A stretch of DNA of 64,000 nucleotides from Candidatus Shapirobacteria bacterium (GTDB lineage: Bacteria > Patescibacteriota > Microgenomatia > UBA12405). Location: positions 69,867 to 133,866 of the forward strand of contig JBAYIT010000002.1 in the NCBI GenBank assembly GCA_041665485.1, read 5' to 3'. The notes beneath the pieces are model-generated. The model searched no databases and was not told the origin of the DNA. It saw only the letters and a list, made by a program, of their open reading frames with translations. Below are positions 7,620 through 25,094 of this stretch, piece after piece; the stretch's first letter is position 1; every line of letters begins with the position of its first letter. Made by a program: the position numbers and the translations under genes.

Positions 7620-7673
7620 CAGTAATACTAATAAAACCAACACAAGCTTTTCAACTCATTTAACTCTATCAAC

Positions 7674-8774: not shown

Positions 8775-9598
8775 TGAACAATTCAAATCCAATCGTCACT
8801 GTTTTCATTGTCAACTACAATTCCGCTGATTTTATTGACATAAGTTTATACGCCTTATCAAAACTATCTGGCTACCCCTACAAAGTAGTCATTCGTGACA
8901 ACAACTCAAACTTAAGAGATTACCAAAAACTAGTAAATATCTGTCGCAAGTATCCAAACACAAAAGTTGTTCGTAGCCATACACCTCTTCGTGGCAGTCT
9001 AGCCCATGGAACTGCTTTAAATTATTTATGCAAAAATATCAACACTCCTTATTTTTCAATACTAGATGCCGATGCTATCTGGTTGATAAAAAACTGGGAT
9101 AAAATATTGATCAACAAACTTAACAAAAAAGTAAAAGCAATTGGTACCCAAGTAGCTCTAGACTCAAACAAACCAAAAGATTTTCCCATAATGTTTTCTA
9201 TCTTATTTGAGACAAAAACATTTAAAAATCTGAATATTGATTTCAGACCTGATAAATCCGACATAGTTAAAGACACCGGATACCAACTAAGAGAAAAATA
9301 TCTGTCAAATCATTTCTTAGGAAAAATTATTGAAATGAGAAACACCCGTGTTTACCATTCAGGTCCATTTAAAAATGTTATTTGTGCTGAATATTATTTA
9401 GACACTGATTATAATAATATTTTTTCTTCTCATTTTAGCCGAGGTTCTTCCTTGGGTAAAGCAAAATATATTAAAAATATGAGCATTATTAGTCCATACA
9501 GAATCCCATTTTTTGGAGATTACTTATTACAACTCAAGGGAATGATGGAAAAACATCATTGGATAAATATCTGTCGTAAAATTATCGACTCACAGTAA
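8774..9598 (+). CDS. glycosyltransferase family 2-like protein
   Basis: N-terminal IVTVFIVNYNSADFI...VVIRDNNS resembles the GT2 (NYN/DxS) pattern. 274 aa. Start overlaps the preceding stop (ATGA). Confidence 0.5.
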   Translation: MNNSNPIVTVFIVNYNSADFIDISLYALSKLSGYPYKVVIRDNNSNLRDYQKLVNICRKYPNTKVVRSHTPLRGSLAHGTALNYLCKNINTPYFSILDADAIWLIKNWDKILINKLNKKVKAIGTQVALDSNKPKDFPIMFSILFETKTFKNLNIDFRPDKSDIVKDTGYQLREKYLSNHFLGKIIEMRNTRVYHSGPFKNVICAEYYLDTDYNNIFSSHFSRGSSLGKAKYIKNMSIISPYRIPFFGDYLLQLKGMMEKHHWINICRKIIDSQ

Positions 9599-10219
9599 AT
9601 CACTCTTTACAGGTTTCATTACCACTTTAATACCATAACACGGGATAACAGATGAAAACAGTACTTCATATAACTCTTGGTAAATCATTTTTTTATTGAC
9701 AATCTTTTCCAATAAATTAAATAAATGTTTTATAACTGGAAAGTAAAATCCAAATGTCAATTTAATGCTACATATCTCAAACTTTTTTATTCCATAAAAT
9801 TCAGGTACTTTTCTGTATAGATTCTTAATACTATTTTTATTAGCATAGTAAAAAAAAGTGTAATATCCAAAATAACGTTTATGAGTCGGGTCAGAATAAA
9901 AATATGGATTTGAAAAATGTGGAACAAACAACTCCAAACTTCCGGATTTTTTTAAAACTCGATGAATTTCAAGAATCAACATGTCAAAATTCTCAATGTG
10001 CTCAAAAAAGCTTTTACATTTAATCAAGTCAACACTGTCGTCAGGCAAAAAACCCAAACCCTCTTCCAAATCAGATACAATATCCACCCCTTCCAAATCC
10101 AATCTATCTATACCTAAAAAATCATCTTTTCTTTTTACTCCACAACCCAATTCAATTGCTAAATACTTTCTCTGTTTAATGTTTTTTAACAGACCATTTT
10201 TGTCAATATATTTTTGCAT
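9590..10219 (-). CDS. class I SAM-dependent methyltransferase (Methyltransf_11-like)
   Basis: LAIELGCGVKRKDDFLGID..DIVSDLE motifs I/II. 209 aa. Overlaps the convergent + strand gene by 9 nt. Confidence 0.65.
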   Translation of the reverse strand: MQKYIDKNGLLKNIKQRKYLAIELGCGVKRKDDFLGIDRLDLEGVDIVSDLEEGLGFLPDDSVDLIKCKSFFEHIENFDMLILEIHRVLKKSGSLELFVPHFSNPYFYSDPTHKRYFGYYTFFYYANKNSIKNLYRKVPEFYGIKKFEICSIKLTFGFYFPVIKHLFNLLEKIVNKKMIYQELYEVLFSSVIPCYGIKVVMKPVKSDLL

Positions 10220-11473
10220 TTAGATTGATTTCCATTCTAATATTGGAGCCATCATCCCCATTCTTCTATCAATCCAATAAGGAGAATTACTTAATCCTCC
10301 TTGGATTTCGAGATTTACCGTAGGACAATCGTTTGATAAACCAATAATCCAATCCCCCTTATTAAACTTTGCGGTTAAAACAATACGATATTCCCCCTGG
10401 TTTAAAAAATGTTTTGGAATCTTATTCAATAATCTAATTTTACCTTTCATAAATTTTGGCCAAGAATCTTCGTCTCCGTCGTAAGTAGTCGACACAAAAA
10501 CAACATTGTTATCCGCATCATAAATAACATTACTTAAATTTATATTCAGATCGTCTGCTTTACATTCACCTTCAATCTGAATCCAGATATCATCATCATT
10601 CCTAACTGGCATATCCCTCAACTGCCCCTTTTCATTTGTTATCGAATATCTTAATGGTATAAAATCACCCGCAAATTGCTTTTCCCTCTTTAACCATTCA
10701 GCATTTTTCTTACCGACACCTTCATTATTACTGTAAGAGTAGTTTTTAATAGCTTTTAATACATTATTTGTATCGTCTTTAATATTACCTTGATCTAAAA
10801 CAATTACTTTTTTACACAATTTTTCAATCGCCCCCATATTATGACTTACAAATAACACCGTTCTGCCTTCTTTCTTTGATACCTCATCCATCTTCCCTAA
10901 ACACTTTTTTTGAAATTGAGCATCACCAACCGCTAAAACCTCATCAACGATAAGGATGTCTGGTTCGAGGTTTGCCGCTATAGCAAAAGCTAATCGAACG
11001 TACATCCCCGAAGAATATCTCTTCACTGGAGTATCCAAAAACTTTTCAATTTCCGAGAAAGCCACAATTTCATCAAATTTCTTTCTTATTTCTTTCCGGC
11101 TTAATCCCAAAATTGCTCCATTTAAAAAGATGTTCTCTCTCCCTGTTAATTCTTGATTAAACCCTGTTCCTACTTCCAATAATGACGCCACCCGGCCATT
11201 CATCGTAATCTTTCCTGTTGTTGGAGGAGTGATTTGAGACAATATTTTGAGTAGAGTGCTTTTACCAGCTCCATTCCGCCCAATAATTCCCACCGCCTCT
11301 CCTCGCTTAACCTCAAAATTTACATCTTTTAACGCCCAAAATTCTTCAACCGCCTTTTTCTTATTAAAATTCCATAAATTAGCAATTTGATCACGCAAAG
11401 AATAATAAGGTTCTTTAGCACCTATCTGATATTTTTTTCCCAGATTCTCTACTTTTATTATCGTATCACTCAT
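10220..11473 (-). CDS. wzt: polysaccharide ABC exporter ATP-binding protein (Wzt/TagH-like) with C-terminal carbohydrate-binding domain
   Basis: Walker A GIIGRNGAGKSTLLKIL, ABC signature YSSGMYVRLAFA, and Walker B ILIVDE. An approximately 170-aa C-terminal extension is typical of Wzt glycan-binding domains. Confidence 0.85.
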   Translation of the reverse strand: MSDTIIKVENLGKKYQIGAKEPYYSLRDQIANLWNFNKKKAVEEFWALKDVNFEVKRGEAVGIIGRNGAGKSTLLKILSQITPPTTGKITMNGRVASLLEVGTGFNQELTGRENIFLNGAILGLSRKEIRKKFDEIVAFSEIEKFLDTPVKRYSSGMYVRLAFAIAANLEPDILIVDEVLAVGDAQFQKKCLGKMDEVSKKEGRTVLFVSHNMGAIEKLCKKVIVLDQGNIKDDTNNVLKAIKNYSYSNNEGVGKKNAEWLKREKQFAGDFIPLRYSITNEKGQLRDMPVRNDDDIWIQIEGECKADDLNINLSNVIYDADNNVVFVSTTYDGDEDSWPKFMKGKIRLLNKIPKHFLNQGEYRIVLTAKFNKGDWIIGLSNDCPTVNLEIQGGLSNSPYWIDRRMGMMAPILEWKSI

Positions 11474-12297
11474 AGTGTATCGGCAAGAAATCTCTCCGTC
11501 TTTCTAAAATAAGCTAATCCAAACATAAAAAATAAAACACTAATTCCAAAAGTCATCGCCAACAAATTGAAATCGATAATTCCATAGAGAAACCCACCTC
11601 TGGCCATAGTAATTACCCCCGCCATTGGATTTAAAAACGAAACCCACCTATAACTTTCCGGGATAATCGAAGAAGGATAAATTACTGGAGTAACATACAT
11701 TAACAATTGTATAAAAAACGGTAGTATATAACGAACATCGCGATATTTTGCATTAATCGAACCCAAAAATAATCCTACTCCCAAGGCAGTTAAAAAAGAA
11801 CAAAATAGTAATACTGGCAAAAGCAATATCCCAATAACACAAGGAACGTAACCAAAAATTAAACTTAATCCAAAAAAGATTATCAAAGAGAATCCAAAAT
11901 CAACCAATGGAGTTACCGCCGTCGACAACGGTAATAACAATCTCGGAAAATAAACCTTTTTAATAATATTTTCATTATCAACCAGGCAAGAACTTGCCGA
12001 AGATAAAGATGTTGAAAAGTAATTCCACAAAAGCAATCCAGTGTAAACAAAAATAGGGTAGGGAACACCCTCTGAAGGAATTTTTGCCAGGTTGCCAAAA
12101 AAAACCGTAAAAATTATCATCGTAAATAACGGTTGAAATATCGCCCAACCTACACCCAAAACTGTCTGTTTATAGCGCACTTTAACATCCCTCCACGCAA
12201 AAGTATATAAAAGCTCACGGTATCGCCACAATTCTCCCCAATCTAGACATACCAAATTCTTGGGTGGTGTAATTGTATATACATTATCTTTTGGCAT
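11470..12297 (-). CDS. wzm: polysaccharide ABC exporter permease (ABC-2 type, Wzm/TagG-like)
   Basis: 275 aa with 6 TM segments. Translationally coupled to wzt. The N-terminal cytoplasmic LWRYRELL..RDVKVRYKQTVLGVGWAI is typical of ABC-2 permeases. Confidence 0.8.
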   Translation of the reverse strand: MPKDNVYTITPPKNLVCLDWGELWRYRELLYTFAWRDVKVRYKQTVLGVGWAIFQPLFTMIIFTVFFGNLAKIPSEGVPYPIFVYTGLLLWNYFSTSLSSASSCLVDNENIIKKVYFPRLLLPLSTAVTPLVDFGFSLIIFFGLSLIFGYVPCVIGILLLPVLLFCSFLTALGVGLFLGSINAKYRDVRYILPFFIQLLMYVTPVIYPSSIIPESYRWVSFLNPMAGVITMARGGFLYGIIDFNLLAMTFGISVLFFMFGLAYFRKTERFLADTL

Positions 12298-12326
12298 CGT
12301 ATTCTTATTCTACTATGACTCATCAA

Positions 12327-13898
12327 CTATTTTATTATCTGGTCACAGCTAATTTTTATTCTATCGTCCATAAATGAAATAGTTATACATTTCTTCTCTT
12401 CAATCAACTCACCCGCAATAAAACCATCAAAAAAACCACTGCCACCTTTTTTTGATATATTGATTAAACTACCGCTTAAATCTCTTTCCAAAAAACTATC
12501 GTATTCCTCAACGCTTTTACCTCTCCACCTAAACCCTAAAACATTTTTTACCCCATAGGCTTCAATGAATCTCTTTATCGACAACACCGATTCATAATCT
12601 CCAGGATCGTCACTTTCGAACAATAGTATTTTTTCTTTATTTTTGTTAGCTTCAGTTACAATCATCTGAACCTTATCAGTAAACAACCTTGTCCTAACTG
12701 CATTATTTCTACCTGCTTCAACAATTACGCCATATCCTACCGTTTTAATCGCTAAAGCCATGGCTACCAACCAAACCAAAGTATATAAACTATCTAACCA
12801 CTTTCTTGTAAACAATATTTCTATCAACCGCTTACCCATATAAAAAATCACTGCCAGCAACATTGGCAACATCAATATCCCCGGATAATCATAACGTGAC
12901 AAAACCGGCCAGTTCCCATTATAAAAAAACACCTGACTACCAATCACAATTACTCCCAATATCACTGTTATTAACAGTATTTTTAAAACACTCCACCATT
13001 CTATCCAGTTTTTTTGGTTATTTCTGTAAATATATAAACTAACCGCTCCAAAGAAAACTGTTATTAAAGTAAAAACCATTTTTAAAAAAATTGGTATCTT
13101 GCCATAAACTCTTACTATCCAGTTTATTAAATTATTCAACCTTCCGCCTGTTTCCACCGAATTTCCGTAAAGATCATAACTATTAGTAGAAAAATATTTT
13201 AGTAACCCAAACCAAATCCACATCTCAAACCCTGTTAACACCAAAGCCACCACCAAAAGACACCAATCTTTATTTTTACCAGTCAATTTATACACTACTA
13301 GTCCCCAAATCGGTAACAATAAGATAAAGAAATTTTCTTTTGTTCCCAAAGCAATCAATCCTCCCACGAAAACACATCCATACCCTATACCACTCTTACC
13401 ACGCATCCACACCCAATACAAACCCATTAAAACCATCGAGGTTCCCAAAACTCCATAAATTTCTGCTGGCCCAAGCCTTGTCCAGATATCTGACCATCCA
13501 GGATATAACAAAGTTACTAGCACTATCCCGACAGCCATGCTTATACCTATCCATTTTTCTAGCAAATATATACCCGTAAACACCATAAATACAAAAAGGA
13601 TAAATTTACTCATATACCACAAAACTGGATTATTCCCCCATAAACTACACTCTATTAAATATACCAACCAAAATGATGGTCGGAAACGGTTCACTTTTCC
13701 GTACTGACCAACTTCAGTACCTAATATTATCCGAGGAATTTCAAACACCGATATTTTTCCATCGTTACCCAAAAACGTCATTATTGCATGATCATCGATC
13801 ACACCCCACTTAGCTCCAAGATTTACACCAATCAAACACCAGCCCACTACTAATGACAATAATAAAATCACCCCATTTTTAATAACCGATCTTTTCAT
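12327..13898 (-). CDS. polytopic membrane protein, probable GT-C fold glycosyltransferase with C-terminal soluble domain
   Basis: 523 aa with more than 10 TM segments followed by an approximately 120-aa hydrophilic C-terminal domain. Sits in an operon with GT2/GT-C pairs. No definitive motif. Confidence 0.4.
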   Translation of the reverse strand: MKRSVIKNGVILLLSLVVGWCLIGVNLGAKWGVIDDHAIMTFLGNDGKISVFEIPRIILGTEVGQYGKVNRFRPSFWLVYLIECSLWGNNPVLWYMSKFILFVFMVFTGIYLLEKWIGISMAVGIVLVTLLYPGWSDIWTRLGPAEIYGVLGTSMVLMGLYWVWMRGKSGIGYGCVFVGGLIALGTKENFFILLLPIWGLVVYKLTGKNKDWCLLVVALVLTGFEMWIWFGLLKYFSTNSYDLYGNSVETGGRLNNLINWIVRVYGKIPIFLKMVFTLITVFFGAVSLYIYRNNQKNWIEWWSVLKILLITVILGVIVIGSQVFFYNGNWPVLSRYDYPGILMLPMLLAVIFYMGKRLIEILFTRKWLDSLYTLVWLVAMALAIKTVGYGVIVEAGRNNAVRTRLFTDKVQMIVTEANKNKEKILLFESDDPGDYESVLSIKRFIEAYGVKNVLGFRWRGKSVEEYDSFLERDLSGSLINISKKGGSGFFDGFIAGELIEEKKCITISFMDDRIKISCDQIIK

Positions 13899-15574
13899 CT
13901 AACCCCTAGATCATAAACTTCAACATAATAACCATTATACCCGATCCTTTCTTGCTTCCCGATAGAATAATTCTTCAAAATATTTTCCATAACCTCACTC
14001 TTTTCCGCCAACCAAGGAACATGAATATATTTAAATGACCTCAATCCACCAGCGTCATCCAACCCACCCAAAATTTTAATATCCTCAAAAAGGTATTCTG
14101 ACCCACTATCTCCGTAAACTATACTATCACCAATCAATTTATTGATTTTTTTAGCTAATTTATCAACAAACACAAACTCAGTGTTATACACCAATCCATC
14201 ATAGTACCCAAATATCGCTGAACTTCGACTATTCAATGAATTACCTCCAAATAATCTCTTGGGTAAAATGTCTATTGATCGAAAAATCTGCCCCAAGAAC
14301 AAAATTGATATTATTGGCAACATTATTCTAATTCTTTTTCCGTCTTTTACTAAATAATTAAATGCTAAACCGAAAAATAATGTTGTAAAAAATACCAAGG
14401 GAACCATATATCTAGCAAAAGTCATTGTAATAAATGTCAGATTAAAAATTAGTAGGCTTACAAAAACAAAAAGGATTACTATAAATTCCTGAAGTTTCTT
14501 ATTTGTCACAAATGAATTAAATTTAATTTCTTTTCTGACAATAAATTTTAATAATACCAATAAAGTAACCGCCGATAATATCCATGAAAAATTTAGCCCA
14601 AAAATCTGAAACAATCTGGTGATTACATTACCCTTTTCCAAACCAAAACAAAAAAGACAGCTATTATTCCACTGAAGTTCCAATTTACCACCCCCAATAA
14701 TTCCATTACTCCAAAAGTTCCCTTTGAAATAAAACCAGTATCCTATCATTAACGCCACTGGCAAAAATATTACCAATAACTTCCACAAATCATTTCTCAC
14801 CACCATTTTTCTTAGATAATTCACCCCAAATATAACTATATTAATTCCCAAAAAAGATAAGTAAATCAACCAACCGGTTTCTTTCGAGAAAATTATCAGT
14901 CCTGAATAAACAATAAAATAAATATATTTCTTGTACAGCCAACTTTCAAACATTAGTACTGTAAAAATAAGCACCGGAAAGTCGATATTAAAACTTATTG
15001 ATGTGGCAATACTCAAAGGATTTAAAGCAAAAATTAGAGTAATCCACAAATTAACAGATTTTCTCTTATTATTAAAATAATTTAAAATTTCATGAAAAGC
15101 CTTAATTGCTAACAATGACAAACACAAATTCCCAACACTTAACCAAATTTTGCTCTCACCCCCAAAAAATTGAGTTATTGCCATTAGGCCTGAATAACCC
15201 ATCGAAGAGTGTCCCAACCAATTGAAATTTGGTAAAAAAGTGTTTATCGTCAAGTCAAAGGACTCAATACTTGAATGTAATAACCTCCAATACCATCCAG
15301 CATCCCATCTTTGGGTGTAATTCAAAAAAGGGATTTGGATTAAACTTCTAATCACTAAAATTACGATTATTCCCAAATTGCCCCTAATATATTTTTTTTG
15401 AATCTTTTTTATTTTCATCATCACAACCACTACTGAAACAACGTTTGAAATCCCAATTAAAATCCAAAACAATAATCCGCGCTCAACCAATCTGACCTTT
15501 TCCAAAGCAAAAGCACTATCAATAAATATCGTCAAAGACACTAAAACATTTGCAATCTGGCTCAAAATTACCAC
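13895..15574 (-). CDS. polytopic membrane protein, possible GT-C glycosyltransferase
   Basis: 559 aa, many TM segments. A QRWDAGWYWRL loop follows TM1. A 4-nt overlap couples it to the neighbouring genes. Confidence 0.4.
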   Translation of the reverse strand: MVILSQIANVLVSLTIFIDSAFALEKVRLVERGLLFWILIGISNVVSVVVVMMKIKKIQKKYIRGNLGIIVILVIRSLIQIPFLNYTQRWDAGWYWRLLHSSIESFDLTINTFLPNFNWLGHSSMGYSGLMAITQFFGGESKIWLSVGNLCLSLLAIKAFHEILNYFNNKRKSVNLWITLIFALNPLSIATSISFNIDFPVLIFTVLMFESWLYKKYIYFIVYSGLIIFSKETGWLIYLSFLGINIVIFGVNYLRKMVVRNDLWKLLVIFLPVALMIGYWFYFKGNFWSNGIIGGGKLELQWNNSCLFCFGLEKGNVITRLFQIFGLNFSWILSAVTLLVLLKFIVRKEIKFNSFVTNKKLQEFIVILFVFVSLLIFNLTFITMTFARYMVPLVFFTTLFFGLAFNYLVKDGKRIRIMLPIISILFLGQIFRSIDILPKRLFGGNSLNSRSSAIFGYYDGLVYNTEFVFVDKLAKKINKLIGDSIVYGDSGSEYLFEDIKILGGLDDAGGLRSFKYIHVPWLAEKSEVMENILKNYSIGKQERIGYNGYYVEVYDLGVR

Positions 15575-17412: not shown

Positions 17413-17746
17413 TTTTTACGACCTTCTTAATTGCCATTTCCGAAACCAACTTAGCAATTTGTTTTTGCAATCGATTTATCCTGATATGATTTTCAAACAT
17501 CACATAAGCCAAAATTATCAAAGCCATTACGTTACCGAGATCAAACAAACGAATGAAGAACAGTTCTTTAACCAAGGGCTCTAAATATTTTGGAAAAGAG
17601 GTAATAAACAACAATCCACCCCAGACAGTAACCCACACCATTGCCCCTTTAGCCCCAATTTCCTTTTTCTTCCAATACAAATAAACATTGTAAAGCATGA
17701 AAAAAGAAAAAATAAAGGCAATTAATTGAACTCCCAATATATTCAT
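17402..17746 (-). CDS. small membrane protein co-transcribed with a GT2 (GtrA-like/DUF2304-like role)
   Basis: 114 aa with 2-3 TM segments and a basic C-terminal tail. It lies immediately downstream of a DPM1-like GT2, as in Gtr cassettes. Confidence 0.4.
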   Translation of the reverse strand: MNILGVQLIAFIFSFFMLYNVYLYWKKKEIGAKGAMVWVTVWGGLLFITSFPKYLEPLVKELFFIRLFDLGNVMALIILAYVMFENHIRINRLQKQIAKLVSEMAIKKVVKNVK

Positions 17747-17748
17747 AA

Positions 17749-18420
17749 TTATTTTATGAAGAACCAGTAGGGGATTTGGGTTAAAATTTTCATCGCATCA
17801 AAAAGCGACACCCCTTTGTACTTATCAATGTAAATTGTATCAACCTTTAGTTCCTTAAAGGCAATTTTATTTTTCCCCACCTTGGTTGCCATTTCCGTTT
17901 CAATCCCATACCGCGTCGAATTCCATTTAATTATTTCGTAAACCTCCTTTCTAAACCCCAGATAACCACAAAGTAGATCTTTTTTCTTAATTCCAAATAA
18001 AACATTAACTAAGTGGGCCGCAAAAATATTCCCCAACTTTCTGATTAGGGGCATTCCCTTATTTAACTCTCTGTACCCAAAAACTACCGGGTAGTCAGCC
18101 AGACATTTCCTAAATTCGGGAATGTATCTCGGGTTATGTTGGCCATCGGCATCTAGAAATAACACCGCTTGAGCCCCTTTTATAAAGGCGTATTTTGCCC
18201 CGGTCTTCATTGCTGCTCCCTTGCCTAAATTAATCGCGTGCCTTAATAGCGAAATCTGATGTTCTCCGGCAAAACTCTTGGTTAATAATTCAAAAGAATT
18301 ATCAGCCGACCCGTCATCAACCACCACCACCTCACCGTCATGTATCTTCAAAACTGCTTCAACCGTATTTACCGCCCTCTTTCCTTCGTTATATACCGGA
18401 ATAATTATTGTTAAATTCAT
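17749..18420 (-). CDS. glycosyltransferase family 2, polyprenyl-phosphate sugar synthase-like (DPM1/GtrB-like)
   Basis: 223 aa. LTIIIPVYNEGKRAVNTVEAV...VVVVDDGSADNS and DADGQH are GT2 DxD/DAD motifs. The small size is typical of GtrB/DPM1-like enzymes. Confidence 0.7.
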   Translation of the reverse strand: MNLTIIIPVYNEGKRAVNTVEAVLKIHDGEVVVVDDGSADNSFELLTKSFAGEHQISLLRHAINLGKGAAMKTGAKYAFIKGAQAVLFLDADGQHNPRYIPEFRKCLADYPVVFGYRELNKGMPLIRKLGNIFAAHLVNVLFGIKKKDLLCGYLGFRKEVYEIIKWNSTRYGIETEMATKVGKNKIAFKELKVDTIYIDKYKGVSLFDAMKILTQIPYWFFIK

Positions 18421-20081
18421 TTGTTGTCAAAATATACCCACTCCATTTGCGGTTGTCCATTAGTAACTTTAATTGTCAATATATCAGCGTAATCTTTTGA
18501 ATCAACTAGCAGGGGAGTCAACTTTAAACAAAGCCAATCTTCACCAACCACTATCGGCTTAAACTCTAAAATCATTTGTCTTTCTCCCTGAACATCCCAA
18601 GGCTTTAAATAACCATGTCTATATATTTTTTTACACTCACTATTCATTATCTGATACCGATAGGGGACTATTATCTTTTTGTTTCTGTTATCCAAGTTTA
18701 ACGCCAACCCAGAAATATTTTTCTCCGCCACCTCTTTTAATAAATTTGTTTCTTTGTCGATCAATAATAACTTATCTGCCGGCATTTTTAACTCTAATTT
18801 ATTTACTGTATTTCCCGACCAATCAAAATACCGATTCCATAAACTATTTCCCATATTTACTAACACCCCAACTAAAAGTAACCCTAATAATATGTTTTTA
18901 AAATAAACCATCAATCCACTAATTAGCACCAACCACAATGGCACCAACGGCAGCCAGTAACGCCCCTGTATTCCCTCCACACTACTATTCCCTGGGTAAG
19001 ACCACATCAGATACATCACCAAAGTTGTCAAAAAAGTTACTAAAAATATCACCCCACCGATTACCACCAATTCACTTAATTTGATTTTATTCTTTAAGTC
19101 TTTGGCCAGTCTAGCCACCACAAAAACCGCCAATATTACAAATGCAAAATATAAATAATTATTTATCATCGGCATATTTCTCCAACCCATTACCCCAACC
19201 ATTTCCTCAAAATGGGGCAAGAATTTTTCTACCCAAGTATCTTTAACTACTTCCAAGAAATATATTAGATCATTTTTGATTACTTCAAGCTGTAATTTCG
19301 GATTAACAAAAGTCGGATAATTATTTTCTCCTTTGCCCAATTTTCCCGTTCCTAAAACCATCACTGTTACCAGTCCAATTACTATAATTTTTCGTCTGTC
19401 TAACCCAAACAGTAGTATTAACGGCAAATAAACCGGCTTAATTATGCTAATTAGCAATACTATTGCATAAGCCAGCCAACCTCTGTGCTTACTAAACCAC
19501 AAGGCTGTTAGTGGCAACACTGAACCCAAAATTACCACGTCATAGCTATAGGCTGTAGCCTGATGGACCACCATTGGCATTAGAGCGTAAAACCAGAGCA
19601 AATATTCAAATTTTTTATTAATTATTTTTAGCCCAATCTTAAGCATTAAAAGCAAAAACAAAAATCCAAACAATCTACCGGCATAAAAAATCACTGCCGG
19701 CTGATTAGTCCAACTCGTAAGCCATACACCAAGAGAATTAGGAATATAACCTAAAAAGTTCAAACCACACCCTCCAATATTCACTGTTTCTTTTAAATCA
19801 TCTTTCGTCCAACTTCTATTAAAATCAATCAAACCAAGCGGAAATTTTTGGTTTTCCAGTAGCACTTTCTCGAAATTAAAACTTTTTTGTACATCTTCGT
19901 AAACCTTAGGAATAATAAAATGGCCATTTCGACAAAATAATTGCCCGGAACTTAAAGCCACCGCTCTCGTAAAATGAGCCGTCTCATCAAACTTTTGAAA
20001 CGGCGGTAAACCAAGGGTCAACAACAATCCTTCCGCCAAGAGAAAAACCACCAAAAACAATCTCATTATTTTTCTAAACAT
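18417..20081 (-). CDS. GT-C fold membrane glycosyltransferase (ArnT/PMT-like)
   Basis: 554 aa, polytopic. Loop 1 contains FQKFDETAHFTRAVALSSG, a DE..H..R motif as in PMT_2/ArnT-like enzymes. A large C-terminal periplasmic domain is present. Confidence 0.5.
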   Translation of the reverse strand: MFRKIMRLFLVVFLLAEGLLLTLGLPPFQKFDETAHFTRAVALSSGQLFCRNGHFIIPKVYEDVQKSFNFEKVLLENQKFPLGLIDFNRSWTKDDLKETVNIGGCGLNFLGYIPNSLGVWLTSWTNQPAVIFYAGRLFGFLFLLLMLKIGLKIINKKFEYLLWFYALMPMVVHQATAYSYDVVILGSVLPLTALWFSKHRGWLAYAIVLLISIIKPVYLPLILLFGLDRRKIIVIGLVTVMVLGTGKLGKGENNYPTFVNPKLQLEVIKNDLIYFLEVVKDTWVEKFLPHFEEMVGVMGWRNMPMINNYLYFAFVILAVFVVARLAKDLKNKIKLSELVVIGGVIFLVTFLTTLVMYLMWSYPGNSSVEGIQGRYWLPLVPLWLVLISGLMVYFKNILLGLLLVGVLVNMGNSLWNRYFDWSGNTVNKLELKMPADKLLLIDKETNLLKEVAEKNISGLALNLDNRNKKIIVPYRYQIMNSECKKIYRHGYLKPWDVQGERQMILEFKPIVVGEDWLCLKLTPLLVDSKDYADILTIKVTNGQPQMEWVYFDNK

Positions 20082-20787
20082 TAATTTTATTTTTCACCAA
20101 CATCCACACCGCCTCCCAAAAGTCTTTAAGTTTAATTTTTTTACCCTGTTGTTTATTGCGCGGGTTGTAACTAATCGGCACCTCATATATTTTTTCTCCG
20201 CTTTTTAAAATCTTGGCAGTTACCTCCGGGCAAAATTCAAATCTTTTTGATTCAAGCTTTATCGACTTTAATAATTTTGTTTCAAACATTTTATAACAAG
20301 TTGGCTCATCAGTGATATTTCCACCATACAAAAGATTGGTCAACAAAGTTAATACTTGGCCTCCCAAATAAAAACCAATTCCTGAATAATGGTTTTTTCG
20401 ACCCCCAAGTTGTCTTGAACCATAAACCACCCTCACCTTATTCTCCATCATTTTAGCTAACATTGTCTTGAAATCGTTTGGATCATACTCTAAATCTCCA
20501 TCCTGAACTACTGCCACGTCGCCTGTCATTTTTTTAAACCCAGTTCTCAAAGCCATGCTTTTGCCTTGATTCTTAAGGTGATTAACCAAAACAATTGGCA
20601 ATTTTTTTGACTTAATTATTTTTCCTAATTTATCCCCGGTACCGTCAGTTGACCCGTCGTTAACCACAATTATTTCTTTCTTTATTTCTCCCAAATCCAC
20701 ATCCGCCACTCTCTTAATAATCTTTTCAATCGTATTCTCTTCGTTATATACCGGAATAACTATCGATAATCTTTTTATTGATTTCAT
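20074..20787 (-). CDS. glycosyltransferase family 2, dolichyl/polyprenyl-phosphate hexosyltransferase-like (DPM1/GtrB-like)
   Basis: 237 aa. LSIVIPVYNEENTIEKII...IIVVNDGSTDGT and VQDGDLEYDP are GT2 motifs. Confidence 0.75.
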   Translation of the reverse strand: MKSIKRLSIVIPVYNEENTIEKIIKRVADVDLGEIKKEIIVVNDGSTDGTGDKLGKIIKSKKLPIVLVNHLKNQGKSMALRTGFKKMTGDVAVVQDGDLEYDPNDFKTMLAKMMENKVRVVYGSRQLGGRKNHYSGIGFYLGGQVLTLLTNLLYGGNITDEPTCYKMFETKLLKSIKLESKRFEFCPEVTAKILKSGEKIYEVPISYNPRNKQQGKKIKLKDFWEAVWMLVKNKINV

Positions 20788-22367
20788 AGATGACCCGTTA
20801 TTATAACCAATTTTTGCCGTTCATAACCCAAGAAACTTGTCTCCTCTTCTGACTCCACCATAAATCCTCTAATTGTAATATTTTTTAAACAAGACTCATA
20901 TTCCGTATTCATCCCACTCCTAGCAGCAATCGTTACAAATTTTACCCGGTCTTTTGCTCTCAAATGTTTTTCCAACCTAAGTTTACTTTCCTCTTTGTAA
21001 TTCGAATTGTTTGTCATTTGACTATAGGCATTCTGGCCAATATTGAGCACCGGCAAATTAGTAAAAGGAGAGAGAACATAATAAGTCATCCCCCCAACCT
21101 CACAATTTAAATATATATCCGGTTTGTAAACCAAAGATTTATCGGCCTTAATCTTGCTTGCTAAAATATTTTTAAATTCCTTTGGATAACTTTCCCGGTT
21201 ATAAAAATACCCCGGCCGAAAGCCAATATCATAAGCCAAAGACAAGTTAACCACCCGCTTATTTTGAACCAAAAGTACCAAAAACAAAGGCAAAAACAAA
21301 AAATATCTCCAAGATTTATTTTGAAATTTTGAATAAATCAATAGAATTATTAAGCCTCCTAAATACTCCAGAATTAACCCATATCGTAAATAACCGAAAC
21401 TTAACCCCCAACCCAAAAAAGCCACTACATAAAAACTAACCAACCAAGATCGCGCCAAAAATAACGCTAAAATTGCCATTACAAAATAAATATTTATTTT
21501 GTAGTCATTAAACAAATCGTGGACTTGACCAAGTCTTGCCGGCTTTAAAGCCGAATAATAGCCCCACCCCAATCTTTGCCATAAATTTTCCCCACCAAAT
21601 TGAGGTTCATGAAAACTAACCGGAGCAAAATATTTAGATTTAAAAACCGCATTATAAAAAGGAAAAATCGGGCTACCCGTGACTAGCCAATTTTTGCCAT
21701 ACCACCACAGGGGCAACAACATTACTACTCCCAAAACCAACAATGCTTTCTTCGTGGCTATTTTCTTTTTAAACCACTGATACAACACCACCATCCCAAA
21801 GGCCGGAACCAAATATAAATTCGTTTGCTTCCCCGCCACCAACACTGATAGCAAAAAACCAGCCAAAAATAGATTGCCCTTAATTAACCAATAAACCACC
21901 CACAAGCCCGCCATCGCCACCAAGCCGTCAACATAATACGATCCAACTCCCAAAAATAGTTCAAACGACAAAAAACTACTTACCAATAGAAAAGTTGATC
22001 CCAAATCACCCAGAATTTTTCCCTTGTGGTTAAGTAATTTATATATTTTATAAATCGCCAAAATCCCCAAGTATATTGCCAGCACCGAAAAAAATGTTCC
22101 CAATCTATAGCCCAATAAAGCATTGAACCCAAAGCCTACCATATCCAAAATTGGCGAAAAGTTGTGAATCCCGGTCGGAAAAAATTCATATTTATTGTTT
22201 TCCCAATTAATACCCTTAAAACCTAAATACAAGTGATAATTCAACGAATCTGCCGACACATCGGGGATAAAAACTCGATTTAAAAAAATCAAAAAAGGGA
22301 TAGCTAAACCAAACACCAATAAAAAAAGTGACAACCACCACTCAAACTTTTTCAAAAACAATTTCAC
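20784..22367 (-). CDS. polytopic membrane protein, probable GT-C glycosyltransferase
   Basis: 527 aa, many TM segments. The loop after TM1 reads PDVSADSLNYHLYLGF. It pairs with the upstream GT2, giving a GtrB/GtrC-like arrangement. Confidence 0.45.
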   Translation of the reverse strand: MKLFLKKFEWWLSLFLLVFGLAIPFLIFLNRVFIPDVSADSLNYHLYLGFKGINWENNKYEFFPTGIHNFSPILDMVGFGFNALLGYRLGTFFSVLAIYLGILAIYKIYKLLNHKGKILGDLGSTFLLVSSFLSFELFLGVGSYYVDGLVAMAGLWVVYWLIKGNLFLAGFLLSVLVAGKQTNLYLVPAFGMVVLYQWFKKKIATKKALLVLGVVMLLPLWWYGKNWLVTGSPIFPFYNAVFKSKYFAPVSFHEPQFGGENLWQRLGWGYYSALKPARLGQVHDLFNDYKINIYFVMAILALFLARSWLVSFYVVAFLGWGLSFGYLRYGLILEYLGGLIILLIYSKFQNKSWRYFLFLPLFLVLLVQNKRVVNLSLAYDIGFRPGYFYNRESYPKEFKNILASKIKADKSLVYKPDIYLNCEVGGMTYYVLSPFTNLPVLNIGQNAYSQMTNNSNYKEESKLRLEKHLRAKDRVKFVTIAARSGMNTEYESCLKNITIRGFMVESEEETSFLGYERQKLVIITGHL

Positions 22368-22926
22368 TGTTTAATCCAAACTGAAACAATTTATAACTCA
22401 CCATTTTGAAACCAGTTTCCTTGGCTAATTTTACAACATCTTTTCTTTCGTAATATTTTTTATGATCGTCAATTTGAGCTTTATCAATTAACCCAATTTT
22501 AGCCATGAATTCCAACATCGGTTTAGATGGTGGAGTTGGTGTTGTCATAACCAAAAAACCGCCAGTCTTTAGCACCCTTCTAAATTGAGCAAATAAATCA
22601 CTTACTTTGTCCAAATCAATGTGTTCCAATACCGCCAACATCACTACCTTATTAAAACTATTTAGTTTTAGTTCATTCCAGATATTTTTATCTTGTTTTT
22701 TAAATTCTAAATTCTTAGATTTTTTTGGGTTTATCTCTAGGTCTATTCCCAATCCGTATCCAATCTTATCTGCAATTTTTCTCAAAAAATATCCCTGACT
22801 GCCACAGCCAAAATCCAACACCCTGTCTCCATTTTCAATATACTTTTCAACCCTTACCAGCCTCATTCCAGCAATTAACCTGTCTAATACGTTGAAAGCT
22901 TCCGTGCTCATAGGAGATGCTATCAT
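22342..22926 (-). CDS. class I SAM-dependent methyltransferase
   Basis: VLDFGCGSQGYF motif I. 194 aa. First gene of the long minus-strand operon. Confidence 0.65.
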   Translation of the reverse strand: MIASPMSTEAFNVLDRLIAGMRLVRVEKYIENGDRVLDFGCGSQGYFLRKIADKIGYGLGIDLEINPKKSKNLEFKKQDKNIWNELKLNSFNKVVMLAVLEHIDLDKVSDLFAQFRRVLKTGGFLVMTTPTPPSKPMLEFMAKIGLIDKAQIDDHKKYYERKDVVKLAKETGFKMVSYKLFQFGLNSEIVFEKV

Positions 22927-22931: not shown

Positions 22932-23489
22932 ATGACATTCACCACCCTCTCCCTCCCCGGATTAATCTTAATTGAACCTCAAGTTTTTGGAGATAATCGA
23001 GGCTTCTTTTTAGAAAGTTATAACGCCAAAGTTTTTGCCGAAAACGGAATTACCACCCAATTTATTCAAGACAATCATTCACAATCCCAAAACAACATTC
23101 TTCGCGGTCTACATCTTCAACTCCCTCCTTTTGCCCAAACCAAATTAGTCCGAGTCACTCGTGGCCAAGTCTTGGACGTTGTTGTTGATGCCCGCCCAAA
23201 TTCTCCTACTTACAAAAAATTTGAAATGGTGGAGCTTTCTGAAAGCAACAAACGCCAGCTTTATATCCCAGCCGGATTCCTTCATGGTTTTCTCACCCAA
23301 AGCCCGATTGTCGACTTTCAGTACAAAGTAGATAACTACTATTCTAAAGAGTCGGAAATCGGTGTTCTCTGGAACGACCCGGATATTAATATTTCCTGGC
23401 CCGCAAACAATCCAGAGCTATCTGCCAAGGATGCCATTAATCCGAGAATTGCTGAAGTTGAAGAAAAATTATCTATTTTCAAAAACTAA
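22932..23489 (+). CDS. rfbC: dTDP-4-dehydrorhamnose 3,5-epimerase
   Basis: IEPQVFGDNRGFFLESYN, catalytic His/Tyr context (NILRGLHLQ, YIPAGFLHGF) and YSKESEIGVLWNDPDINISWP are the RmlC signature. Confidence 0.9.
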   Translation: MTFTTLSLPGLILIEPQVFGDNRGFFLESYNAKVFAENGITTQFIQDNHSQSQNNILRGLHLQLPPFAQTKLVRVTRGQVLDVVVDARPNSPTYKKFEMVELSESNKRQLYIPAGFLHGFLTQSPIVDFQYKVDNYYSKESEIGVLWNDPDINISWPANNPELSAKDAINPRIAEVEEKLSIFKN

Positions 23490-23490
23490 A

Positions 23491-24378: not shown

Positions 24379-25072
24379 CCATAAAATTACTTACCCGCAA
24401 CAAAGAATCAAATGTCCCAGCGTCTTCCCAGACACCATCAATAATATTTACTGTCAACTCACTACTTTGCAAATAAATATTGTTAAGATCGGTAATTTCT
24501 AATTCTCCCCGGGCCGATGGTTGCAAATCTTTGGCAAATTTGACCACTCGATTGTCATAAGTATAAAGGCCGACTACGGCATAGTCACTTTTTGGTTTAA
24601 TAGGTTTTTCTTCAATTGAAATTGCCCTCATTTCTTTATCAAACTCAACTACTCCAAACCTCTCCGGATCTGGAACTTTTTTTGCAAACACCATAGCGCC
24701 ATTGTTAAAAGTTTTTATAGCTTCCGAAAAATCATCCTCAAATATATTATCTCCCAAAATCATGGTTACATTATCGTTACCAATAAAGTTCTCTCCGATT
24801 CTAAAAGCGTCAGCCAACCCTCTCGGTTCTTCCTGAATTTCATAAGAAAACTTAACCCCAAAATCTCTCCCCGATCCTAATAAGTTCAAAAAATGACCGG
24901 AATAATCGGGGGCGATAATTATTAAGATGTCCTTAATACCCGCTTTAGCTAAAGTTTCAATCGGATAATAAATCATCGGTTTGTTGTAAACCGGCAGTAA
25001 CTGTTTTGAGGTGATTTTGGTTAACGGCCTCAACCGAGTGGCTTTCCCACCAGCCAAAACTATACCTTTCAT
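24350..25072 (-). CDS. rfbA: glucose-1-phosphate thymidylyltransferase (short form)
   Basis: [41 protein letters not shown] is the RmlA N-terminal signature. 240 aa. Confidence 0.85.
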
Positions 25073-25094
25073 TATCTTAGTATATACTTAAATC

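Follow-up and report, generated by a model that had tools for sequence, protein, structure and literature searches.

What might a bacterium of the CPR/Patescibacteria do with five large polytopic proteins encoded next to a glycan exporter? The question is raised by a locus of an uncultured, ultrasmall Candidatus Shapirobacteria bacterium, lying in the 64,000-nucleotide stretch of DNA analysed here ("the window"). We address it from gene layout, family and fold assignments, acidic motifs, predicted topology and the recurrence of the gene combination elsewhere. For this locus, ORF calling gives twelve ORFs, all on the minus strand and spanning exactly 9590-22926 of the window. Gene calls on a separate JGI metagenome contig (L001) yield an identical set of twelve, in agreement with the twelve co-directional genes of a preliminary description. 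The genes were also said to be joined by overlaps of 4-26 nt. Read in the order of transcription, the junctions measure -26, -4, -8, -4, +2, -11, -7, -4, +29, -4 and 0 nt; such overlaps are present at eight of the eleven junctions, but not at the other three (0, +2 and +29 nt). A consensus promoter scan found 54 sites against 57.9 expected, none above chance, so that it is the spacing alone that suggests a single transcript of the twelve genes. Two small GT2 enzymes are encoded in the operon, alongside five large polytopic proteins; it thus does not consist of three stacked GtrB-like GT2/GT-C modules, as initially described.

The two small enzymes, GT2a (17749..18420, 223 aa) and GT2b (20074..20787, 237 aa), match Glycos_transf_2 with 81.6 and 105.9 bits, respectively. 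Both align over their full length with the dolichol-P-mannose synthase PfDPMS (5mlz; E = 1.2e-10 for GT2a, 8.6e-19 for GT2b), followed by ArnC and GtrB. NCBIfam matches of the pair are PpgS, AglJ, PgfS and ArnC, the top match being PpgS for GT2a (full length, 73.7 bits for an equivalog cut-off of 370) and AglJ for GT2b (87.8 bits, under the cut-off). Neither protein has a predicted TM helix. Their small size, the lack of TM helices and the end-to-end alignment with 5mlz argue against processive, cellulose-synthase-like enzymes. These features support the earlier view of both as small DPM1/GtrB-like enzymes of the polyprenyl-phosphate sugar synthase class, GT2b being predicted to be a soluble or peripheral GT-A protein of the polyprenyl-phosphate hexose synthase type.

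The gene downstream of GT2a encodes a small membrane protein of 114 aa (17402..17746), which had been placed at the GtrA position. This identity is rejected, as the protein matches DUF2304 (PF10066, 59.3 bits). GacJ and Rv3632 belong to the DUF2304 family and stimulate GacI and PpgS, respectively (10.1101/180810). By analogy, the DUF2304 protein is a putative activator, of the GacJ/Rv3632 type, of the adjacent GT2a, for which a role as its GacI/PpgS-like partner is predicted. The pair is kept in loci L006 and L015 (60% and 73% identity). Because a GT2 and a DUF2304 protein make up the GacI/GacJ pair (10.1101/180810), the analogy with the Gac/Rgp systems is closer than the preliminary description realised.

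The five large polytopic proteins are M527 (20784..22367, 527 aa, about 8-10 TM helices and a 154-aa C-terminal soluble domain), a DUF2142 protein (18417..20081, 554 aa; PF09913, 101 bits), M614 (15568..17412, 614 aa, about 12 TM helices and a 143-aa C-terminal domain), M559 (13895..15574, 559 aa) and M523 (12327..13898, 523 aa). All five exhibit a family-conserved acidic motif in a predicted extracytoplasmic loop, located after a TM helix that is preceded by a K/R-rich loop (positive-inside rule). The two ArnT/PMT-type motifs noticed at the outset, WDELAY, at residue 127 of M614, and FDETAHF, at residue 31 in the DUF2142 protein, both follow this pattern, just after the helix, and the predicted topology places them outside.

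M527 has no direct Pfam match. However, many of its 63 homologues are annotated with PF13231, and one (54% identity) clears the PMT_2 gathering score with 33.5 bits; all aligned family members retain D36 and D40, which lie in the loop that follows TM1. M614 scores 24.9 bits against PMT_2, slightly below the gathering score of 26.1, and weakly matches the LIC_10190 family of NCBIfam. An hhalign comparison relates it to the M527 family with 97% probability (E = 1.1e-10, 314 columns), WDELAY being aligned with D36..D40, and these two are the only GT-C genes linked by BLAST (E = 5e-4).

M559 and M523 belong to uncatalogued families. M559 matches neither Pfam nor NCBIfam; a profile search collected 1425 cluster representatives, and in a sample of ten family members eight lack a Pfam match and two have a weak PMT_2 match. 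W90-D91 is conserved in all members covering that position, and the family is related to that of M527 with 90% probability (hhalign). M523 is rare: a word-indexed search covering 5.8 billion clusters gave only 16 homologues, all of them devoid of Pfam domains. D35, D36 and H37 are kept throughout the members that cover these positions, and K187 and E188 are invariant. The AlphaFold model of M523 (pLDDT 90.4, pTM 0.89) has exclusively GT-C proteins as its top 19 Foldseek matches in the PDB: ArnT (E = 1.5e-3), DPY19, STT3, PglB, ALG9/12 and Pmt. For the M559 model (pLDDT 70.6) the top matches are ArnT (E = 1.1e-4), ALG9/12, AftD and Pmt4, with EmbB and PimE also among the matches. With such modest E-values (1e-3 to 1e-4) and TM-scores of about 0.4, the fold call derives from every top match being a GT-C and not from one strong match.

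For the DUF2142 protein, D32, E33 and H36 of FDETAHF do not vary among six sequences that are 22-27% identical. The protein has no PDB match, and its hhalign comparison with the M527 family is weak (24% probability, E = 8e-4), the conserved D and K residues being aligned. Its status as a putative GT-C comes from the literature, the DUF2142 family including the lactococcal GT-C WpsI (PMC12599335, PMC9574508). Negative controls in the same hhalign test (Wzm, the acyltransferase and an LPG_synthase_TM protein) all stay below 0.5%. A PMT_2 protein of a neighbouring glycan cluster (36812-38227, plus strand, 471 aa; PMT_2 45.1 bits, PMT 24 bits) reaches 80%, and brings the count of GT-C-type proteins in the window to six, within the five to six first estimated. 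None of the five large proteins matches PMT proper (PF02366) or any soluble luminal domain in Pfam. The HMM classification suggested earlier, the hhalign links to PMT_2-related proteins and the GT-C matches of the models speak against transporters or non-GT families. They identify M527, M614, M559 and M523 as predicted GT-C glycosyltransferases or relatives of one.

The ABC-2 exporter of the preliminary description is readily recognised in Wzm (11470..12297, 275 aa; ABC2_membrane 76.4 bits) and Wzt (10220..11473, 417 aa; ABC_tran 84.3 bits). The top NCBIfam matches are the galactan export permease Wzm/RfbD and then KpsM for the permease, and TagH and the galactan Wzt for the ATPase. As for the carbohydrate-binding domain attributed to Wzt, a hypervariable C-terminal extension of about 165 aa is indeed present, but its match to Wzt_C is below threshold (16.8 bits, E = 0.0068; gathering score 30.4), and a search of PDB sequences gives no match for it. 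Compared with the L006 orthologue, the NBD is 72% identical and the C-terminal domains have no detectable similarity. This is the pattern expected of a glycan-specific CBD (PMC9445017), and the extension is possibly such a domain. MT1 (9590..10219, 209 aa SAM methyltransferase; Methyltransf_11 31.2 bits) directly follows Wzt (gap 0) and, on the Wzt-CBD paradigm (PMC9445017), is a candidate chain-terminating or capping enzyme. In the sibling operon its position is taken by a 474-aa protein with a C-terminal methyltransferase domain of 25% identity (E = 1.6e-5). The first gene of the operon encodes MT2 (22342..22926, 194 aa), a class I SAM-dependent methyltransferase (Methyltransf_23 58.3 bits). 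Its orthologues (45-51% identity) precede M527-type GT-C genes in L005, L006, L007 and L014, and its 26-nt overlap with the next gene recurs in the gene calls of L005 and L006.

The operon is adjoined by the dTDP-L-rhamnose genes rmlABCD (22932..26108), the rhamnose genes of the preliminary description: rmlC (22932-23489, plus strand; dTDP_sugar_isom 228.7 bits), rmlD (23362-24378, plus; RmlD_sub_bind 163.2 bits), rmlA (24350-25072, minus; NTP_transferase 220 bits) and rmlB (25095-26108, plus; GDP_Man_Dehyd/Epimerase 258 bits). On its other side, a minus-strand block (680..6565) encodes cytoplasmic Leloir glycosyltransferases (four GT4 and one GT2) and a methyltransferase (Glycos_transf_1, Glyco_trans_1_4, Glycos_transf_2, Methyltransf_23), which by proximity alone are candidate builders of the polymer carried by Wzm/Wzt. 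A GtrA or Wzx flippase gene is found neither in the operon nor in those ORFs of the window that were scanned, and an anchoring enzyme, whether an LCP-type ligase or another, is not recognised in the window. The LPG_synthase_TM protein (28509..29438, minus strand, 309 aa; PF03706 95.4 bits) has a weak match to the TIGR00374 flippase-like domain (19.3 bits), and lies, at 48-56% identity, beside the M527-type locus in L005, L006, L007, L012, L013 and L015. It could be a flippase for polyprenyl-phosphate sugars.

Related loci are found in other genomes. A sibling Shapirobacteria operon (L006/L015) has the order GT2b-MT2-M527-GT2a-DUF2304-Wzm-Wzt-MT, the DUF2142 protein, M614, M559 and M523 all being missing; compared with this minimal operon with a single GT-C, the window version has four more. 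The contig of an M523 homologue (P0003) reads GT2-MT-610aa-M523like-608aa-Wzm-Wzt. A near-full-length short GT2 gene lies on the same strand within 2.5 kb in 40 of 79 M527-type GT-C loci, and Wzm/Wzt within 10 kb in 24 of the 79. In five Clostridia loci (L053, L061, L069, L070, L084), DUF2142 adjoins short GT2 genes near Wzm/Wzt. Across otherwise related operons, the number of GT-C genes ranges from one to five, the donor genes being constant.

We regard it as reasonably probable that the operon encodes a unit for the export and decoration of a cell-envelope glycan, for which we infer the sugars, the acceptor, the capping and the flippase. At the cytoplasmic face, the neighbouring Leloir GT4/GT2 enzymes would build a polyprenyl-diphosphate-linked glycan, probably containing rhamnose since rmlABCD is adjacent. 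A methyl cap added by MT1 possibly ends the chain, and the Wzm/Wzt transporter would export it, the variable C-terminal domain of Wzt recognising the chain end. In parallel, GT2a and GT2b would each load a nucleotide-sugar-derived sugar onto polyprenyl monophosphate, GT2a being activated by the DUF2304 protein as GacI is by GacJ and PpgS by Rv3632. A protein whose gene lies outside the operon would then flip the lipid-linked sugars, the LPG_synthase_TM neighbour being a candidate. At the outer face, M527, the DUF2142 protein, M614, M559 and M523 would move the sugars onto the exported glycan, each with its own acceptor or linkage specificity, presumably set by its C-terminal soluble domain of 120-155 aa. 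Homology, fold and gene context support the Gac/Rgp-like logic proposed at the outset, namely an exported polymer receiving side chains from lipid-linked sugars.

With five GT-C genes for two donor synthases, a logic of one sugar per module cannot apply to every GT-C. The same ratio would suit five GT-Cs that act in sequence outside the membrane and build an oligomeric or polymeric branch from just two polyprenyl-P-sugar donors. In mycobacteria, the Emb and Aft enzymes all use decaprenyl-P-arabinose, and the PimE and Mpt enzymes all use polyprenyl-P-mannose. The occurrence of AftD, EmbB and PimE among the structural matches of M559 fits with this, as does the variable GT-C number at constant donor genes. 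However, the GT-C genes are highly divergent, the BLAST link between M614 and M527 being their only one, and exhibit no sign of a paralogous expansion as in embCAB. Moreover, the cytoplasmic GT4/GT2 set and Wzm/Wzt suffice to make a backbone. Nothing at the sequence level separates chain building from the addition of single sugars, and we consider the former unlikely.

Protein acceptors appear less plausible still. Actinobacterial Pmt O-glycosylates proteins with the Ppm1 product. Some or all of the PMT_2-like GT-Cs might similarly glycosylate secreted proteins (S-layer, pilins, adhesins) on Ser/Thr, with Wzm/Wzt serving a separate polymer. Three of the large proteins (M527, M614, M559) are relatives of Pfam PMT_2, Pmt1/2 and Pmt4 are among the fold matches of the M523/M559 models, and no LCP ligase is seen in the window. 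Yet PMT_2 spans many non-protein acceptors, ArnT, of which the acceptor is lipid A, tops the structural matches of both models, and PF02366 and luminal domains are not matched. The genes, furthermore, lie between a glycan exporter and rml, and M527-type genes repeatedly occur with Wzm/Wzt as noted above; protein O-glycosylation is thus quite improbable. We give even less credit to the scheme proposed for the lactococcal polysaccharide pellicle, in which WpsA/B are homologues of GacI/GacJ, and WpsI, carrying DUF2142, and WpsJ are GT-C enzymes (PMC9574508, PMC12599335). Here, GT2a and the DUF2304 protein would start a polyprenyl-monophosphate-linked oligosaccharide, to be extended in the cytoplasm and flipped; its polymerisation would be the task of one GT-C, for instance the DUF2142 protein, and its ligation to the backbone exported by Wzm/Wzt that of another. 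The DUF2142 gene lies directly upstream of GT2a-DUF2304, and the Clostridia loci have a comparable arrangement. In contrast, neither a Wzx-type flippase nor a WpsH/Wzz-like co-polymerase is recognised in the operon, and the sibling operon retains GT2a-DUF2304 without DUF2142, so that the pair is independent of the latter.

An export-and-decoration unit is a type of mechanism already known from streptococci and mycobacteria; the present operon combines five predicted membrane sugar-transferases, two of them from uncatalogued families. The Streptococcus pyogenes Group A carbohydrate system (GacI/GacJ/GacK/GacL, ABC exporter GacD/E, rml; equivalent Rgp/Scc) likewise has a polyprenyl-P-sugar GT2 with a DUF2304 activator, a polytopic GT-C acting outside the membrane, and an ABC-2 exporter and dTDP-rhamnose genes in the locus. 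This likeness, drawn by family, is between a Firmicute and a CPR bacterium. The present locus differs in having five GT-C genes instead of one, a second donor synthase without a DUF2304 partner and three methyltransferases in or beside the operon; a Wzx (GacK) flippase was not found, and a GacH-type glycerol-phosphate transferase is absent. In Mycobacterium tuberculosis, PpgS (Rv3631), Rv3632 and Rv3779 carry out the galactosamine modification of arabinogalactan, and Rv3781/Rv3783 are the Wzm/Wzt galactan exporter. The resemblance lies in the top NCBIfam matches of GT2a, Wzm and Wzt, in the stimulation of PpgS by a DUF2304 protein and in the use of the donor by a GT-C. However, all scores are far under the equivalog cut-offs, and here a single operon is involved.

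In Lactococcus lactis, several GT2/GT-C pairs per organism (CsdAB, CsdCD, CsdEF, and WpsA/B-WpsI/WpsJ) decorate an ABC-exported rhamnan, with a shared flippase (CflA) encoded elsewhere and the participation of DUF2142-type GT-C enzymes. Those pairs are dispersed and one-to-one, whereas here five GT-C and two GT2 genes share one translationally coupled operon with the exporter. The three-component GT136 O-antigen glycosylation of Citrobacter youngae (PMC11127046) also modifies a polymer of the ABC-transporter pathway after polymerisation, by a GT-C with a C-terminal substrate-binding module and a polyprenyl-P-sugar donor. There, the donor polyprenyl-phosphoribose comes from a PRPP-dependent synthase and a MATE protein flips it; no counterpart of either protein is found in the present operon. 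Finally, in the WzmWzt systems for capped O-antigens (E. coli O9a WbdD; Aquifex aeolicus 3-O-methyl-Rha/Man cap; PMC9445017), from which the present locus differs by its sub-threshold Wzt_C match and by an MT1 without the kinase or coiled-coil ruler domain of WbdD, a Wzt C-terminal extension fully divergent between orthologues is likewise accompanied by an adjacent methyltransferase gene and nearby rhamnose genes.

The preliminary description placed an operon of twelve genes on the minus strand at 9590-22926, and ORF calling in the window bears out both its boundaries and its gene number. In transcription order, the genes encode a methyltransferase (MT2, 22342-22926, 194 aa, Pfam Methyltransf_23), a large polytopic protein (M527, 20784-22367, 527 aa), a family 2 glycosyltransferase assigned by Pfam (GT2b, 20074-20787, 237 aa), a DUF2142 protein (18417-20081, 554 aa), a second GT2 likewise assigned by Pfam (GT2a, 17749-18420, 223 aa), a small DUF2304 protein (17402-17746, 114 aa), three more polytopic proteins (M614, 15568-17412, 614 aa; M559, 13895-15574, 559 aa; M523, 12327-13898, 523 aa), a permease (Wzm, 11470-12297, 275 aa), an ABC ATPase (Wzt, 10220-11473, 417 aa) and a last methyltransferase (MT1, 9590-10219, 209 aa, Methyltransf_11). 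The GT2 enzymes thus number two and the large membrane proteins five, in place of the three GT2/GT-C pairs first proposed. The junctions, in the same order, measure -26, -4, -8, -4, +2, -11, -7, -4, +29, -4 and 0 nt: the overlaps described earlier hold for eight of the eleven, and the remaining three abut or leave short gaps. The same twelve called genes occur in the same order on an independent JGI metagenome contig, where MT2 is called from its second methionine (189 aa). The GC content of the operon genes is 28-39%, against 41-46% for housekeeping genes. A scan for consensus promoters and terminators gave nothing above chance. The first start codon of the operon (22926, minus strand) and the start of rmlC (22932, plus strand) are 5 nt apart, so that the promoter of each must sit within the other gene. 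At the 3' end, the MT1 stop overlaps a convergent GT2 gene (8774-9598) by 9 nt, which leaves no space for a terminator.

The window comes from a Candidatus Shapirobacteria lineage (CPR/Patescibacteria) and is chromosomal, and its 0.7-44 kb interval is entirely devoted to glycan biosynthesis. Four GT4 genes, one GT2 gene and a methyltransferase gene (680-6565, Pfam) precede a group of methyltransferase, acyltransferase and GT2 genes (6648-9598). On the other side of the operon lie rmlC, rmlD, rmlA and rmlB (22932-26108, Pfam), an epimerase gene, the gene for an LPG_synthase_TM protein (28509-29438), further GT4 and GT2 genes, and the genes for a PMT_2 protein (36812-38227) and a Bac_transf phosphoglycosyltransferase (41353-42024). 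A cell-division and cell-wall cluster (46.6-61 kb: MraW, PBP, Mur ligases, MraY, FtsW, MurG, FtsA, FtsZ) follows, and then IleRS. The rhamnose genes of the preliminary description are therefore a complete rmlA-D set adjoining the operon, as in rhamnose-rich cell-wall polysaccharide loci (Rgp/Gac/Cwps); the GT4 and GT2 enzymes at 680-5921 are only candidates for rhamnosyltransferases of the RgpA/B/F type. For the LCP ligase that anchors the polymer to peptidoglycan in such loci, no LytR_cpsA_psr match was obtained among the scanned window ORFs, and an LCP gene could sit beyond the window.

The five polytopic proteins were examined at the levels of family, fold and topology. M523 has 16 homologues in a word-indexed search of 5.8 billion clusters, none of them with a Pfam domain. 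Its AlphaFold model (pLDDT 90.4, pTM 0.89) retrieves GT-C enzymes as all of its top 19 Foldseek matches in the PDB (ArnT, E-value = 1.5e-3; DPY19, STT3, PglB, ALG9/12, Pmt1/2), with TM-scores of about 0.4 against about 0.1 for transporters lower in the list. For M559, the word index gave 9 homologues and a profile search 1425 cluster representatives; eight of ten sampled family members lack a Pfam match and two show a weak PMT_2 match. The M559 model is of moderate quality (pLDDT 70.6), and its top Foldseek matches are ArnT (E-value = 1.1e-4), ALG9/12, AftD and Pmt4. The predicted structures thus show a GT-C fold for M523 and M559. For both models, transporter folds among the PDB matches score about 0.1 against about 0.4 for the GT-C enzymes. 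On this ground a transporter, a Wzy polymerase or an O-antigen ligase was rejected for these two proteins, for which the transporter or non-glycosyltransferase identity contemplated in the preliminary description can be set aside.

The other proteins were compared through their families. M527 has 63 homologues, many of them annotated as PMT_2, and one with 54% identity exceeds (33.5 bits) the PMT_2 (PF13231) gathering score of 26.1 bits, as does a relative of M559 (28.6 bits). In the window, M614 scores 24.9 bits, just below this cut-off, and M527, M559 and M523 have no Pfam match; given their relatives above the threshold, the window proteins are remote relatives and not recognised members. 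HMM classification, proposed from the start for these proteins, succeeds for DUF2142 (PF09913, 101 bits against a gathering score of 30.1; residues 21-382 on profile positions 7-394 of 395), and none of the other four reaches the PMT_2 threshold. By hhalign, the M527 family is linked to M614 (97% probability, E-value = 1.1e-10, 314 columns) and to the M559 family (90%, E-value = 1.6e-6); control alignments of Wzm, the acyltransferase and the LPG_synthase_TM protein to the M527 family each stayed below 0.5%. DUF2142 matches the M527 family weakly (24% probability, E-value = 8e-4), and in this alignment family-invariant D and K residues fall into register. Neither M523 nor the single-sequence DUF2142 gave an hhalign link to other families. 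The GT-C assignment of the DUF2142 protein rests, by analogy, on the lactococcal literature, in which WpsI, a DUF2142 carrier, and WpsJ are described as GT-C enzymes (PMC9574508, PMC12599335). No meaningful match came out of PDB searches, by single sequence or by profile HMM, with DUF2142, M614, the M523 family, the M527 family or the DUF2142 set, these GT-C relationships being too remote for sequence alone. The best BLAST pair among the window membrane proteins is M614-M527 (E-value = 5e-4); there is no recent paralogy, and the GT-C stack is therefore not a tandem duplication.

All five proteins possess a family-conserved acidic motif (IDDH in M523, WD in M559, WDE in M614, FDETAH in DUF2142, PDxxxD in M527), each in the loop that directly follows a TM helix, the loop before this helix being rich in K/R. 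By the positive-inside rule, all five motifs are predicted to be extracytoplasmic, the location anticipated in the preliminary description. Each protein ends in a soluble C-terminal domain of 120-155 aa, for which the GT136 enzyme offers a parallel in its substrate-binding module (PMC11127046).

GT2a and GT2b are short enzymes with no predicted TM helix. In a PDB search, residues 6-225 of GT2b and residues 1-216 of GT2a align with the Pyrococcus dolichol-phosphate mannose synthase (DPMS; 5mlz; E-value = 8.6e-19 and 1.2e-10, respectively), ArnC and GtrB coming next for both; for GT2a, a chondroitin synthase match scores higher but spans the N-terminal 105 residues only. In NCBIfam, GT2a scores best with PpgS (polyprenyl-phospho-GalNAc synthase), over the full length, and GT2b with AglJ; PgfS and ArnC come next for both, and all scores lie far under the equivalog cut-offs. 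Both sequences contain a D-x-D-[GL]-[QE]-x-x-P stretch (LDADGQHNP and QDGDLEYDP), which we take to be a feature of the DPM1/GtrB/ArnC class. Judged by homology, GT2a and GT2b are predicted GT-A-fold enzymes making polyprenyl-monophosphate sugars. Processive GT2s of the cellulose or chitin synthase type, which the preliminary description had kept in mind, are ruled out by the size of the enzymes, their lack of TM helices and an alignment with DPMS that spans the full length.

The gene of the 114-aa membrane protein begins 2 nt past the GT2a stop. It had been described as occupying the GtrA position; Pfam matches the protein to DUF2304 (PF10066, 59.3 bits), with only a weak LapA_dom match besides and none to GtrA, and the GtrA assignment was dropped. 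The GT2a-DUF2304 pair is kept at the sibling Shapirobacteria locus (L006 and L015) and at a further related locus (L008). GacJ and Rv3632 are small membrane proteins of the DUF2304 family that bind and stimulate GacI and PpgS (10.1101/180810). This shared family suggests that, of a "four-component" glycosylation system (PMC9574508), GT2a and the DUF2304 protein are the half that makes the donor; the DUF2304 gene adjoins the GT2 gene, the arrangement expected of the four-component variant (GacI/GacJ, WpsA/WpsB, PpgS/Rv3632).

The exporter of the preliminary description is upheld at the sequence level, an ABC-2 permease (ABC2_membrane, 76.4 bits) and Wzt/TagH-type ATPase (ABC_tran, 84.3 bits) being encoded together by genes that overlap by 4 nt. 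The best NCBIfam matches, all under equivalog cut-offs, are the teichoic-acid exporter protein TagH and galactan Wzt for Wzt, and galactan Wzm for Wzm. The C-terminus of Wzt is extended by about 165 aa, in which Wzt_C scores a sub-threshold 16.8 bits against a gathering score of 30.4; a weak Wzt_C match also occurs in the Wzt of a related operon, and the domain has no PDB sequence match. Wzt and its sibling-operon orthologue are 72% identical in the nucleotide-binding domain (NBD), and their C-terminal domains have no detectable similarity. A conserved NBD with a divergent C-terminal domain is the pattern expected of, and by analogy fits, a domain reading a lineage-specific glycan terminus (PMC9445017). 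In both operons a methyltransferase gene directly follows wzt, and in Aquifex the Wzt domain binds a methylated rhamnose or mannose cap (PMC9445017); it is therefore reasonable to suppose that MT1 would cap the non-reducing end of the glycan chain.

The sibling operon (L015, a Shapirobacteria MAG) has the order GT2b-MT2-M527-GT2a-DUF2304-Wzm-Wzt-MT, with 46-73% identity to the window proteins and the same flank (LPG_synthase_TM, epimerase, DUF192, GT4). Relative to it, the window has four extra GT-C genes: DUF2142, M614, M559 and M523. The 26-nt MT2/M527 overlap recurs in the gene calls of L006 and another related Shapirobacteria locus, L005. One M523 homologue lies in the order GT2-MT-610aa-M523like-608aa-Wzm-Wzt, and others adjoin GT2 and DUF2304 (L008) or GT2, TMEM234 and MT (L009); the glycan clusters in which M559 homologues occur also encode methyltransferases, PMT_2 proteins and Wzx-type flippases. 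M527-type proteins were located in 79 species-representative genome loci (Shapirobacteria, Saccharimonadales, Acidobacteria, Clostridia, Desulfobulbus, Paenibacillus). A near-full-length short GT2 on the same strand within 2.5 kb accompanies them at 40 of the 79 loci, Wzm/Wzt within 10 kb at 24, and DUF2142 as well at five, all in Clostridia. The gene combination is thus recurrent and widespread, with a varying number of GT-C genes. Between the LPG_synthase_TM and sugar-nucleotide genes, L005 (1313-1966) and L006 (2769-3425) have an HTH_3/Gp49 toxin-antitoxin-like pair that is absent from the matching interval of the window (27498-29438). Two contigs labelled "uncultured Gammaproteobacteria" (L012, L018) carry M527-type genes; the M527 copy of L012 is 45% identical to that of the window and has a Shapirobacteria-like LPG_synthase_TM neighbour. 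At least L012 may thus be a contig of CPR origin that was mis-binned or mis-labelled.

No GtrA, Wzx or MATE Pfam match was found in the operon or among about 60 scanned window ORFs. The "flippase-like" stand-alone LPG_synthase_TM protein (minus strand), kept at 48-56% identity beside the M527-type locus at six related CPR loci, is a candidate for the role of flipping lipid-linked sugars. L. lactis, too, encodes its flippase away from the other components (PMC9574508). Directly after rmlB, a 500-aa polytopic protein (26015-27517, plus strand; about 8 TM helices and a 138-aa C-terminal tail) matches nothing in Pfam or NCBIfam, and hhalign does not link it to the GT-C families; a polymerase, a ligase or a further, seventh GT-C are conceivable identities. 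Another polytopic protein (35449-36828, plus strand, 459 aa), encoded between a GT2 and the PMT_2 gene, matches no Pfam or NCBIfam family; its shape, with about 130 aa (residues 257-387) devoid of predicted TM helices, suggests a Wzy polymerase or O-antigen ligase.

Family and fold assignments, motifs, predicted topology and gene context are what the analysis shows; the sugars, the acceptor, the capping, the flippase and a single transcript are inferred. On this footing we consider it fairly probable that an exported glycan is decorated outside the membrane by five GT-C enzymes using two lipid-linked sugars. A polyprenyl-diphosphate-linked glycan, probably containing rhamnose and possibly methyl-capped, would be built in the cytoplasm and exported by Wzm/Wzt. 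GT2a with the DUF2304 protein, and GT2b, would supply two polyprenyl-monophosphate sugars, which a flippase encoded elsewhere would turn outward, and the five GT-C enzymes would put them onto the exported glycan. Such a system would work like GacIJKL/GacDE, PpgS/Rv3632/Rv3779, the Csd/Wps systems of Lactococcus and the GT136 three-component system that modifies ABC-transporter-pathway O antigens. The GT2 synthases and the polytopic GT-C proteins with an acidic loop motif are, by homology and fold, those expected of multi-component transmembrane glycosylation (GtrABV, CsdAB-CflA, GacIJKL). The mechanism itself is already known from Gram-positive pathogens and mycobacteria, and is here expanded by added GT-C genes. 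Unlike these systems, the window operon couples five mutually divergent GT-C genes with an exporter, has two donor synthases only and no recognisable flippase, and bears conserved methyltransferases at both ends. The model is weakest at four points: this missing flippase, a ratio of five transferases to two donors, a Wzt_C score under threshold and a DUF2142 fold taken from the literature.

Mycobacterial Emb/Aft and Mpt enzymes build chains outside the membrane, and the GT-C stack might similarly assemble a branch or chain there, from two donors only; we regard this as rather unlikely. Still less probable is that some of the GT-Cs O-glycosylate proteins in a Pmt-like manner. We give little credence to a scheme resembling WpsA/B-WpsI/J, in which GT2a and the DUF2304 protein start a lipid-linked oligosaccharide, with one GT-C as its polymerase and another as its ligase. 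Under any of these three readings the system stays in the same basic class. A more radical proposal concerns the conserved CPR core (short GT2, methyltransferase, GT-C, GT2 with DUF2304, Wzm/Wzt, methyltransferase), which would be a self-contained machine building its glycan largely outside the membrane. The ABC-2 transporter would replace the missing GtrA or Wzx flippase and move short polyprenyl-phosphate-linked donors, possibly O-methylated by MT2 while lipid-linked, as Haloferax AglP methylates its substrate at that stage, and a stack of one to five GT-Cs would make lineage-specific surface structures. This we hold to be quite improbable; if true, such structures could set host recognition in these episymbionts.

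Decoration of an exported glycan, our preferred reading, bears on a group of ultrasmall bacteria (CPR/Patescibacteria), many of them host-attached and very few cultured, whose surface chemistry is essentially unknown; the locus offers a concrete and testable view of the way in which one lineage makes its surface glycan and varies it. For two of its GT-C families neither Pfam nor NCBIfam has a model; one is rare (the 16 homologues of M523), and the other has about 1,400 cluster representatives. These uncatalogued families could extend glycosyltransferase classifications and mark extracytoplasmic glycosylation in metagenomes.

Several minor features were observed in the rest of the window. The gene for a 627-aa DUF4012 protein (42054-43937, plus strand), which has a TM helix at its N-terminus and no NCBIfam match, immediately follows that of the Bac_transf phosphoglycosyltransferase. 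The two Mur ligases flank a 196-aa protein (50565-51155, plus strand) that matches ATE_C (aminoacyl-tRNA transferase-like) weakly. A Mur ligase often sits between MraY and FtsW; here this interval (53421-56213, plus strand) encodes a 257-aa protein without family, a PLP-dependent (PALP) enzyme and an ATP-grasp enzyme. With such unusual genes in the cell-wall cluster, the peptidoglycan stem or cross-bridge may be of a non-standard kind. The GC skew of the plus strand is extreme and independent of gene orientation (-0.11 to -0.47 in every 2-kb bin, 1-64000), and at third codon positions it amounts to -0.58 in plus-strand genes and +0.47 in minus-strand genes. Should the G-rich strand be the leading one, the lagging strand would carry the cell-division cluster and IleRS.
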